Origin: Mayamaea pseudoterrestris
Lineage: Eukaryota
Direction of reading: 5' to 3'
Length of the DNA: 64,000 bases
NCBI GenBank assembly: GCA_027923505.1
Contig: BROI01000014.1
Span: forward strand, 558,001-622,000
The position numbers and the translations under genes are program-made. Under the pieces are notes generated by a model. It worked only from the letters and a program-made list of their open reading frames with translations, was not told the origin of the DNA and did no database searches. Shown in pieces: positions 52,051-54,972 of this stretch; position 1 is the first letter of the stretch, and every line of letters starts with the position of its first letter.

Positions 52051-52617
52051 ATGCCTTCCAATGCAGGAAACAATGTATCTGCTCGTCCATTACCAAACAC
52101 GAGTGAATCGAGCGGAGAAACATGCGGATTCGTCGTGCATGTGGTCGCTGTACTGATGGCAATTGCATTTGTTCTGCAAAACCTACTGCAACTCGGCGAC
52201 TCCTCGCTGGTCGTTTCGGATCATGACATATTTCTGCAAGATGTGTGGAACCTCCTTCCAGATTGGTCCTTGCGTCTCATAGTCGCACGAATTTTGGTGG
52301 GAGCTTTGGTTGCAATTCCATTCGTCTACTTTGGAATCAACGCTCAGTCAGTGCCCAAACTCGAGTCTCTGGACAGTCTCTGTGACGAGTTTACGAGAAA
52401 GAATACTGCTGCTACAGGCACCGGCACCATCATTGGCAATGACACATCAAGGTAGGTCGCTGTTTTTATACATGGAATGCAAAACATCACTCTCCTGACT
52501 TCTTCATCCGCATATGTTTTCGCTCAAAGGCGCGAATGGTGCGTACCTGTCGTTGCGGATATTGACGTCGCTCATATTAACGATATTGTATGGAAAGGCT
52601 TTCAAGAGCAGCGATGA
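52051..52617 (+). CDS. PIGP: PIG-P family subunit of GPI-GlcNAc transferase; intron 52452-52529
   Basis: E.CGFV TM1, W-L TM2, Y.GIN...VPKLESLDSLCDEF, and spliced VPVVADIDVAHIND, resembling the PIG-P C-terminal P...D.....N motif. Confidence 0.75.
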
Positions 52618-52772
52618 CAATGCCAACCTAATTGTATGTGAGCCGCAAGTAAAATATTTTTATTTAAAGTAGACTTAAAAGCGCATACAGTAATGCCTCC
52701 CTGGCGCCTGACTCTTCCTCGTTGCCGCCAAGGGCATGCTCACGGATCGAAAACATGTAATTCGCAACAAAG

Positions 52773-53699
52773 CTAAATAGTCGCCAGCGCATCAAAGTCA
52801 ACGTCCATCTCCGCCGGATGCTCATTGTAAAGCGCCTCGTACAAAAAATCACCAATGTCCGGATCGTCCAAGTCATCGTCCCACGCATCATCACTATCCA
52901 CCACCGCCGTTTCATCCGACGCCAGTTCCGACGAGTCCACAGACCTATCATTCGCATTCAATGTATCAGCAGCATTGTTGTAGATCTTCTTCTCAGCTGG
53001 AAGAATAGATTATATTAGAGGAATGGCTGGTAGTGCGCATTCCATAGATTGTGATCAAGATCAATCTGCGGTTGGTCTGGAGATCATAGACTGCTGATAC
53101 ATGGGGCGAATGAGGTGATCTGGAACTCGGTCTTCTTCATAGTCGTCGAGCGAAAAGGGAGCTTCTCTAGGTGAAAGTGGAGGAGACACGGCAGGAGTTT
53201 TGTCTGGTGTGCAAATGATGCTTGGGGATGGTGGTTCGTCAGCAACAATGGGAAGAGCCTTCTTGTTTGCCTTCTCTAGCTCGGCAATGCGCTTCATCGC
53301 GGCCGCATACTTGGCCTGTGACTCGGTCAACGCCACTTCAAGTTCTTCAATCCGCATGCGAGTCTTTTCGCGAGAAGCCGCTGCACTCTCACGATTCCTT
53401 ACGCGTCTCGCTTGTTTCCTCCACTGCGCTAGCTGGGCCTTGGTCATGGGAACGTCAGGCTCATAGCGTGAGCCTAGCTTGACTCCTGGAATCGCAGCAA
53501 GCGAAGCCAGCGGAGAGCAGTCGTCAGCTTCTTCCGGACTAGTTTTATGCTTCTTGTTCGTCGCAGTCGTTTCGGCTTGCTTGCTGGAGCGCAGTTTGTG
53601 CTTGCGATTCATCCTGGCTGCCGCTGGGTCGTCCGAAGGTAGCATGGGAAGCGAAAGGACAGTCTCCGGATGAGCAATCTCGTTGGTCATGGTTGTCAT
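52773..53699 (-). CDS. bZIP transcription factor, HAC1/XBP1-like; unspliced CDS 53699-53061 (212 aa), predicted spliced CDS 53699-53069 + 52996-52773 (284 aa)
   Basis: Basic region WRKQARRVRNRESAAASREK plus leucine zipper; downstream same-frame acidic ORF 52773-52961 is reachable only by removing a 72-nt segment containing three stops. Confidence 0.85.
52997..53068 (-). other. Predicted IRE1-type unconventional intron (72 nt) between two CNG|CNGN stem-loops
   Basis: 5' hairpin agaccaa[CCG|CAGA]ttgatct (loop 53071-53065); 3' hairpin ttcttc[CAG|CTGA]gaagaa (loop 52999-52993); no GT donor; the join G+CT restores the reading frame. Confidence 0.75.
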
Positions 53700-53759
53700 G
53701 ATTTGCTTTTTCTTCCTCCTCGAGTGGAGAGTTTGTGAGAGGTGACTGAAACTGCCAAG

Positions 53760-53875
53760 TGGCGAAACGTGATGGCGCGCCCGGAAGTCGACGATCGAAG
53801 TGCACGATTGAGATGACGTCACACGATTTGCCACGCGTCCCTGCAACGAGGCTCATGACCTGCAACGTGGAACCT
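53760..53875. promoter_or_regulatory. Shared divergent promoter with bZIP-type ACGT/CCACG elements
   Basis: TGACGTCA at 53814-53821, GCCACG at 53830-53835, ACGTGG at 53865-53870, AAACGTGA at ~53765. Confidence 0.5.
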
Positions 53876-53960
53876 TGTGGCGTTGCTCGCGAAACAGAAC
53901 GATCACATCGCGAGGCTCGTTGATCATTCGCGTTTCTTGCATGCATCCGGAATCCTGACC

Positions 53961-54452
53961 ATGACGACCACCTCTACCAGCGACAACCCAGAATCCAAGG
54001 CGGAGGCTCGGAAAAAGAGAAAGGCAATTTTAATACAGCAGCGTCAGGAAGAACTGCAAGGGACGGAACGACACGATGACGGTGGAAACGAAGATAGAAG
54101 CCGATCATTGTCCATTGCTTCTGCTTCTGTCGCATCTGATTCGGATGGAGCCTCACAACAAGACGATTGGGATTCTTTAAGCAAGAAACAAAGAAAGGTA
54201 CAAGTCAGATATGATCCTGCTATACCCATGGACAAGGAGGAGCTTGCGAACTGGAGGCGACAGCATAGAAAGGTGCGGAATCGCGAGTCGGCAGCAGCCA
54301 GTCGTCAACGAATACGAAGTCGCATTACCGAGTTGGAAGGCGAGGTGGAGGAATGGAAGGATAAATACAATTCTGCGATGGAACGACTCAAGACTATGAG
54401 AGAGGCGAAATCAAATGGGGATCGCAAAAAGGGCAGCGCTGAGAATCGTTGA
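53961..54452 (+). CDS. bZIP transcription factor, paralogue of the adjacent divergent bZIP
   Basis: RYDPAIPMDKEELANWRRQHRKVRNRESAAASRQRIRSRITELE, versus RYEPDVPMTKAQLAQWRKQARRVRNRESAAASREKTRMRIEELE in the neighbour. Confidence 0.9.
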   Translation: MTTTSTSDNPESKAEARKKRKAILIQQRQEELQGTERHDDGGNEDRSRSLSIASASVASDSDGASQQDDWDSLSKKQRKVQVRYDPAIPMDKEELANWRRQHRKVRNRESAAASRQRIRSRITELEGEVEEWKDKYNSAMERLKTMREAKSNGDRKKGSAENR

Positions 54453-54972
54453 TATTATCAACAGCTGCTACTATCTGGCGCAAAGTATACCTCGTTGACG
54501 GCGGCATGTAAATCGCAGAATGTAGACTCAATAAAATGTAATAACTTTGAAGTAGCGCTGGTGTGATCTCCTCGATCACAGAATTCATCGTCTATGGAAA
54601 ACCAGCTGCATGAGCATATCTACAATGTTGTCTCGAACGAAAAACTATATCTGTAAGCACTTGTCGTATATGTTTTGTGTTGGTATTGTAGAAGGAGTCT
54701 AACAGTCAACTTGTCAACTAACAATAGCTGTAAATTATACAAAGAACATGAAATAACATTGACGACAACCGACAACTGCAAACCGTCGATCCAAGCACCA
54801 GGCCACCTTTAACATCAATGAGTTGCTAACTGCTAAACGATGTACATCTTTCCCAAATCGTCTCCCGACAAGTATACTGTTACATGTCAACACTACCGGT
54901 AGCTCTTAGTGCTGCGCGCTGACTTATGCAACTCACAAGTCGGACAAGCGATACTCGTCCAGCGTCGTCACC

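Follow-up and report, generated by a model that had tools for sequence, protein, structure and literature searches.

Can a diatom control a transcription factor by having its message cut and rejoined outside the spliceosome, in the manner of the IRE1-spliced bZIP messages? This question is raised by a basic leucine zipper (bZIP) gene on the minus strand of a stretch of 64,000 nucleotides (nt) from the pennate diatom Mayamaea pseudoterrestris (NCBI GenBank assembly GCA_027923505.1, contig BROI01000014.1, positions 558,001 to 622,000 of the forward strand), hereafter the window, from whose first letter all positions are counted. An initial annotation, made from the sequence alone, had proposed that twin hairpins at the end of this gene bound a 72-nt intron of the IRE1 type. 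Our analysis indicates that the locus is very probably a new member of the IRE1–bZIP class, that is, a bZIP mRNA with non-spliceosomal splicing of the IRE1 type and the diatom counterpart of HAC1, XBP1 and bZIP60. The claim is one of functional class ("works like") and not of orthology, because the bZIP domain displays no specific kinship to those of XBP1, HAC1 or bZIP60.

The unspliced message contains an ATG-initiated open reading frame (ORF) of 212 amino acids (aa), ending in MISRPTAD followed by a TGA stop. The ORF listing, translation and Pfam all uphold the bZIP frame described initially: the bZIP_2 profile passes its cut-off (25.1 bits against 22.3), and bZIP_1 does not reach its own (25.3 bits against 27.6). 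The product is 99% identical, over 98% of the query, to the hypothetical protein MPSEU_000703400 of the same diatom at NCBI. A PDB sequence search with this protein returned a single weak bZIP-like match (E 0.015), and in the protein atlas the nearest named clusters are diatom bZIPs, with fungal bZIPs next. The stop codon sits within a first hairpin, whose loop CCGCAGA lies at 53071-53065 on a stem of 6 pairs with one C.A mismatch; the initial annotation had the loop and the enclosed stop right and left the mismatch unmentioned. The second hairpin, 72 nt downstream, is perfect on reading the sequence, as had been stated, and its loop CAGCTGA lies at 52999-52993. Both loops are 7 nt long, with C occupying position −3 and G both −1 and +3 relative to the predicted cuts after G53069 and G52997, and both fit the proposed form CNG|CNGN (CCG|CAGA and CAG|CTGA). 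The published rule for IRE1 substrates asks for a pair of stem-loops whose 7-nt loops share conserved bases (PMC3216516), and the IRE1alpha consensus is CUGCAG together with a stem-loop (PMC2952871). Translation bears out the predicted consequence of a cut behind loop base 3 in both hairpins: the 72 nt removed hold three stops in the ORF frame (TGA, TGA and TAA), and the join leaves that same frame open to a TAG at 52775-52773, extending the protein from 212 to 284 aa. The tail thus gained, counted as 74 residues with the junction alanine included, has 23 D/E against 3 K/R, so that its described acidity stands; the activation-domain role attributed to it may well apply.

The most direct evidence for this splicing comes from four public sequencing runs containing the locus (X1–X4), which were examined as assembled contigs over positions 52400-54700. 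X1 and X4 cover everything, including intergenic DNA. The cover of X2 and X3 is confined to two transcribed genes, with a depth of zero at 53786-53939, and we read these two runs as RNA because their cover is limited to transcribed parts. The sole joint found in X2 and X3 across the examined region skips 72 nt, from 52995 to 53068, with 2 bases ambiguous; the removal of 52997-53068 is one of its three equivalent readings. The non-canonical junction of 72 nt expected in the initial annotation is thus present in the RNA-like contigs and absent from the DNA-like X1 and X4. Read on the minus strand, the intron has the ends GC..CA, CA..AG or AG..GC, depending on which of the three equivalent cuts is taken, and none of these is GT-AG, GC-AG or AT-AC. 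X3 presents the joined form only, with an 807-nt contig that connects 52639-52995 to 53068-53517, and X2 presents both a joined branch (58 nt) and an unjoined one (130 nt, 52968-53097). Both forms in X2 and the joined form only in X3 are compatible with regulation; the levels of splicing are not comparable between the runs, because these are contigs from a single study. In both runs, which represent two different samples, the depth of the joint is similar to that of the flanking exons. The longest transcript-like contig reaches 52639, well past 52997, which removes the concern, voiced at the outset, that transcripts might be polyadenylated before the second cut site.

Conservation among relatives provides the other part of the case. 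A scan with an orthologue alignment recovered 80 loci from metagenome contigs, and a motif-anchored picker of 5' sites gave 74 unique cases including the window, leaving out L012 and L014 (site mis-set), L003 and L009 (no motif), L056 (already spliced) and L061 (TAGCAGT 3' loop). A 3' hairpin of the type cttc, loop CNGCNGN, gaag lies shortly past the stop in 78 of the 80 loci, the exceptions being L056 and L061, and a hairpin scan found strict twin hairpins in 23 loci. Each of the 74 unique cases gains an open tail from the predicted join; where complete, the tails are 61-192 aa long with a mean of 21% D+E. Orthologous introns range from 59 to 189 nt and are a multiple of three in 22 of the 74 cases and not in the other 52; that the open tail is kept although the frame of the intron varies is hard to explain unless the exact join is the selected event. 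The codons past the junction are constrained as well: across 62 unique site pairs the first full codon is GCG, GTG or GAG, always with G as its third base (62/62), and the next is AAG in 61. This constancy of the third-base G and of the AAG suggests that synonymous positions are constrained at the level of the RNA.

Among the proteins, named homologues recovered by protein search are from diatoms only, and among the matches listed, 50 of 120 homologues bear MISRPTA or a close variant; this motif stands at the C-terminus or at most about 22 residues before it, except in P0044 and P0120, which read on into the acidic tail. Alignment of 28 tails revealed an invariant FL within a consensus of about ELGxFLxDTF. 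A search of 1.84 billion representative proteins with a tail profile gave 74 matches, of which 71 are at most 168 aa long, the tail there being annotated as an ORF by itself. Among the longer matches, P0147 (275 aa) also reads through, and P0190 (290 aa) has an unclear form. When the junction and tail of P0120 served as the query of a word-based search, only P0120 itself was matched. Among the loci, L056 has its exons fused precisely where the prediction places the join, a point at which its nearest unspliced relatives (91% identity) carry 101 nt. Judging by their sequences, L056, P0044, P0120 and P0147, which come from other collections, are already-spliced relatives. In the public catalogues, the tail mostly appears as a separate small ORF (proteins P0121-P0193), and this splitting of the gene is a widespread annotation artefact.

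The two cut sites differ in how strictly they are kept. Of the loop conservation anticipated in orthologues, the near-universal 3' loop fully answers to the expectation, and the 5' loop does so in part, being a canonical 7-nt CNG|NNGN in only 26 of the 74 unique cases. At the 48 non-canonical 5' sites the cut likewise follows a G, here in a larger loop that gac/gtc closes. TTG|CTTG in an 11-nt loop of this kind accounts for 35 of them; these form a large clade (the L028-L080 group, e.g., L029:929-1077). Some diatom relatives have an 8-nt CAGCTTGA loop. The already-spliced L056 shows that the TTG|CTTG type of 5' site is used in vivo.

The RNA structures in and around the intron recur to differing degrees. 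In 59 of the 62 unique site pairs the 3' stem matches CTTC/GAAG exactly. Pairing in the 5' hairpin, assessed over 14 canonical sequences, holds for 84% of the cells, as against 15-46% when the partner is slid. The interior of the intron folds into a hairpin in all 64 unique loci (mean z −3.73, with 60 of 64 below −2; −3.02 against shuffles in the window), even as the sequences are unrelated; what is conserved in this central stem is its structure. GATC recurs in the 5' exon (56), intron (51) and 3' exon (56) of the 62 unique site pairs, which suggests alternative pairings able to hold the exons together. In the window, the flanking gatct and agatc that the initial annotation had considered capable of forming a basal stem are both present and are paired in the minimum-energy fold. 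Pairing between the intron and the 5' untranslated region (UTR) is at chance (−19.1 against −18.5 ± 3.3 kcal/mol, with 80 of 200 shuffles as good), and hence a HAC1-like translational block is not supported. As a separate observation, an A/T-rich CTAAT-like motif occurs at 53011-53018 on the minus strand and at the same place in most loci, flanking the central intron hairpin in many relatives; such motifs are a source of TAA stops and are also branch-point-like.

From these features one could draw a general picture in which most diatoms, for a true splicing event, combine a relaxed 5' site (a G|C cut, in many cases UG|C, within a loop of 8 or 11 nt that gac/gtc closes) with a strictly classical 3' loop and a scaffold of the central hairpin and three GATC motifs; we regard this generalization as possible, though on balance doubtful. 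Were it true, diatom IRE1 would at one of its two sites recognize structure and context instead of the classical 7-nt loop, and the module would extend into the stramenopiles with an architecture of its own, which would argue that its origin predates the split of the major eukaryotic supergroups.

How far could the twin hairpins have arisen by chance? The bare six-base motif is common, with 388 matches in the window against 267 expected, and hairpins passing the strict rule number 14 against 4.9 in shuffles. Twins at most 300 nt apart occur once, in the bZIP gene, against an expectation of 0.077, and at least one twin turned up in 22 of 300 shuffles; by themselves the twin hairpins are only mildly improbable by chance. 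The case for splicing is accordingly built on the RNA joint and on the conservation in relatives, and not on window statistics.

Several observations weigh against assigning the locus to the IRE1–bZIP class. None of the four runs is recorded as RNA, the RNA nature of X2 and X3 being deduced from their cover, and all four belong to one study. In the window, the folding energy of the 121-nt region is unremarkable (z −0.81, and −0.84 in a second test), and the 5' hairpin is weak, with its one mismatch, and absent from the minimum-energy fold of the region. The covarying stems expected in orthologues did not emerge, as neither RNAalifold nor pair counting detected anything significant: RNAalifold, run on 20 canonical sequences, recovers the 3' hairpin only, where 2 of the 5 predicted pairs vary one-sidedly in 1 of 20 sequences and compensatory changes number 0, the lack of covariation in this stem arising because it hardly varies; for the 5' hairpin, the 14 canonical sequences score 0.097 in covariation and their shuffles 0.085, the former value being reached by 82 of 500 shuffles and not significant. 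The 5' site is outside the 7-nt CNG|NNGN form in 48 of the 74 unique cases. The end of the intron, with its A/T-rich CTAAT-like motif, pyrimidines and CAG, resembles a branch point followed by a 3' splice site. Finally, labels of XBP1, HAC1 or bZIP60 are absent among the nearest named clusters of the protein atlas, with no specific kinship of the bZIP domain, and none of the 17 window ORFs of at least 300 aa scanned with Pfam has an IRE1 domain.

Some of these points invite other explanations of the joint. The look of the intron's end recalls an unusual spliceosomal intron with non-consensus ends, removed by nuclear alternative splicing: its last bases are a pyrimidine tract plus CAG, many relatives have the CTAAT-like motif 10-20 nt upstream, and the partial removal in X2 could be intron retention. 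Such an intron would nevertheless have to do without GT-AG, GC-AG or AT-AC ends, which are impossible at all three equivalent cuts, and without a donor consensus, given that the first intron bases vary among the relatives (CAG, CTT, CAT, CCG and TAG); both cuts always follow a G, the 3' one within a conserved hairpin loop, and the interior is a stable hairpin across the 64 unique loci. We therefore consider it very unlikely. A non-spliceosomal cut could also be the work of an endonuclease other than IRE1, such as the tRNA-splicing endonuclease or an unidentified RNase, given that we infer the role of IRE1 and that the classical loop is missing from most orthologous 5' sites. The bulge-helix-bulge of the tRNA-splicing type, however, needs the start and end of the intron to pair in a 4-bp helix, with the cuts in 3-nt bulges on either side, and by inspection cagatt and ttccag are not complementary, whereas the published IRE1 rule fits both loops at the gene in the window as well as the 3' loop found almost universally in relatives (PMC2952871, PMC3216516). 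Another nuclease is thus very unlikely.

Two further alternatives deny the 72-nt intron any standing of its own. The public Mayamaea model (P0001, NCBI) has 259 aa and joins ...MYQQS to VDSSEL... over a 147-nt GT-AG intron (53091-52945), retaining the frame and most of the tail, and on this account the 72-nt skip would be a minor by-product. The 147-nt joint is absent from all four runs, however, and the X3 contig is continuous through both 53091 and 52945; taking out those 147 nt would also delete two conserved parts, the MISRPTA end and the beginning of the tail. This makes the public model extremely improbable as the true structure, and if the IRE1-type reading holds, its intron is wrong; that predictors confined to GT-AG introns would miss the spliced form, as had been foreseen, is what this model exemplifies. 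The joint could instead be an artefact, whether an assembly error, template switching by reverse transcriptase or a genomic deletion allele. The use of contigs rather than raw reads, from one study, and a 2-base overlap that could allow template switching speak for this; the recurrence of the joint in two runs of different samples at a flank-like depth, and its absence from the DNA-like runs, speak against it, as do the independent spliced orthologues in other collections and the open tail kept across introns of 59-189 nt. An artefact is almost certainly not the answer.

IRE1-type splicing being preferred, the events at the locus may be envisaged as follows. The unspliced message would yield a 212-aa DNA-binding bZIP form that ends just past the first hairpin loop. 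In the cytoplasm, an IRE1-like RNase would cut both 7-nt loops after the G at position 3, after 53069 and after 52997, and the 72-nt intron would be released, with the central hairpin probably keeping the two cut-site hairpins close. The exons, possibly kept together by the GAUCU/AGAUC pairing, would then be joined by an RNA ligase. The joined message would read in frame into the 73-aa acidic tail with its FL motif, giving a 284-aa factor that is probably an activator of ER (endoplasmic reticulum)-stress genes. In this scheme we infer IRE1 as the nuclease, the RNA ligase, the induction by ER stress and the action of the tail as an activation domain.

Table 1. Coordinates of the features at the bZIP locus (positions in the window; all on the minus strand).
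Feature	Position	Strand	Description and basis
Unspliced bZIP ORF	53061..53699	-	Stops just past the 5' cut site, with one residue between cut and stop
bZIP basic region and leucine zipper	53259..53426	-	Residues 92-147; Pfam
5'-exon GATCT	53081..53085	-	Candidate exon-exon bridging stem with 52983-52987; paired in minimum-energy fold
5' splice-site hairpin	53058..53078	-	Arms agaccaa / ttgatct; sequence reading, hairpin scan, RNA joint
Non-canonical intron	52997..53068	-	72 nt; translation and contig joint
Central intron hairpin	53020..53043	-	ggaatg ... cattcc, between the cut-site hairpins; minimum-energy folds
3' splice-site hairpin	52987..53005	-	Arms ttcttc / gaagaa, 6 perfect pairs
3'-exon AGATC	52983..52987	-	Candidate partner of 5'-exon GATCT; minimum-energy fold
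3' exon, coding part	52773..52996	-	73-aa acidic tail, translated only after splicing, then TAG
AATAAA	52659..52664	-	Likely polyadenylation signal; sequence; transcript-like contig ends about 20 nt beyond, at 52639
Public-model intron	52945..53091	-	147-nt GT-AG, in silico; coordinates deduced from the sequence

Around these features, the window offers little that is out of the ordinary, the remaining genes being ordinary eukaryotic ones, and an Rfam scan of 52600-53800 gave one sub-threshold match to a long non-coding RNA, which we take as chance. A second bZIP gene (53961-54452, plus strand, 163 aa, Pfam bZIP_1) is divergently transcribed about 260 nt from the first. Its basic region, RNRESAAASR, is identical to that of the first bZIP, and no twin hairpins or tail were noticed in it. 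A perfect TGACGTCA palindrome at 53814-53821, in the intergenic region common to both genes, is a possible auto-regulatory site. Contigs of X1 and X3 also contain a second haplotype of this neighboring gene over 54146-54374, with 6-11 linked differences, and at position 53627 the window has G where all four runs have A. Elsewhere in the window, 12 further hairpins with CNGCNGN loops pass the strict rule, with loops on the minus strand at, e.g., 35110, 23144/23141, 9465 and 8759, and on the plus strand at, e.g., 22348, 33290, 37670, 48858, 49875, 57991 and 63500; these may be IRE1 decay sites or merely CAG-rich repeats.

Splicing of bZIP mRNAs by IRE1 has been described in fungi, animals, land plants and one green alga (PMC3216516; PMC13545648). 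A literature search, with subscription-only papers and supplements outside its scope, found no IRE1 substrate described for diatoms, oomycetes or other stramenopiles, and the available parts of PMC4891664, PMC4736632, PMC13545648 and PMC9585838 contain none for diatoms or other stramenopiles. As for the surrounding pathway, a brown-alga transcriptome lists an ERN1/IRE1 annotation (PMC6742357), and in Phaeodactylum tunicamycin induces the genes for BiP, GRP94, calreticulin and PDI, with no transcription factor named in the available part of that report (PMC9585838). If our reading is true, the transcription factor of the diatom ER-stress response would have a name, and a band shorter by 72 nt would provide a simple read-out of its splicing and a basis for designing ER-stress reporters in diatoms used for protein production. 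Gene models could be corrected too, both the public Mayamaea intron and the tails called as separate ORFs. The phylogenetic reach of the module would be widened, a point relevant to the question of whether eukaryotes had it ancestrally.

Set beside the known systems, the diatom gene is closest in mode to yeast HAC1, where the stop of the unspliced form likewise lies at the start of the intron and a very short C-terminus gives way to a new tail on splicing. The HAC1 intron, of 252 nt, pairs with the 5' UTR and blocks translation; unlike it, the diatom intron displays no above-chance pairing with the 5' UTR. HAC1 of Saccharomyces cerevisiae, served by Ire1 and tRNA ligase, is also a bZIP factor with two stem-loops of 7-nt loops, and its intron is far longer than that of XBP1 (PMC3216516), the diatom intron having 72 nt.

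With metazoan XBP1, which is processed by IRE1alpha and RtcB, the diatom locus shares twin loops of the CNG|CAG type and a splicing outcome of a longer protein with a new C-terminus (PMC2952871, PMC3216516). The XBP1 intron is 26 nt long and its removal shifts the frame (PMC3216516), whereas that in the window is 72 nt long, in frame and furnished with stops. Unlike XBP1, the unspliced diatom form has no long specific C-terminal region for membrane tethering of the nascent chain.

Like plant bZIP60 and Chlamydomonas bZIP1, the diatom gene would represent an IRE1-spliced bZIP mRNA in a photosynthetic eukaryote (PMC3216516; PMC13545648). The second loop of bZIP60 has 8 nt and not 7 (PMC3216516), a precedent for the 8-nt loop of some diatom relatives. 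The bZIP60 intron is 20-23 nt long, and the frameshift caused by its removal eliminates a transmembrane domain (PMC3216516). Unlike in bZIP60, splicing in the diatom removes one residue only and adds an acidic tail, and a central intron hairpin is present. Ire1 of the fission-yeast type cleaves in a relaxed fashion at UG|C and functions in mRNA decay and processing; it is not known for splicing of a bZIP message. Its UG|C core is shared by the commonest orthologous 5' site, TTG|CTTG, while the sites in the window itself are classical.

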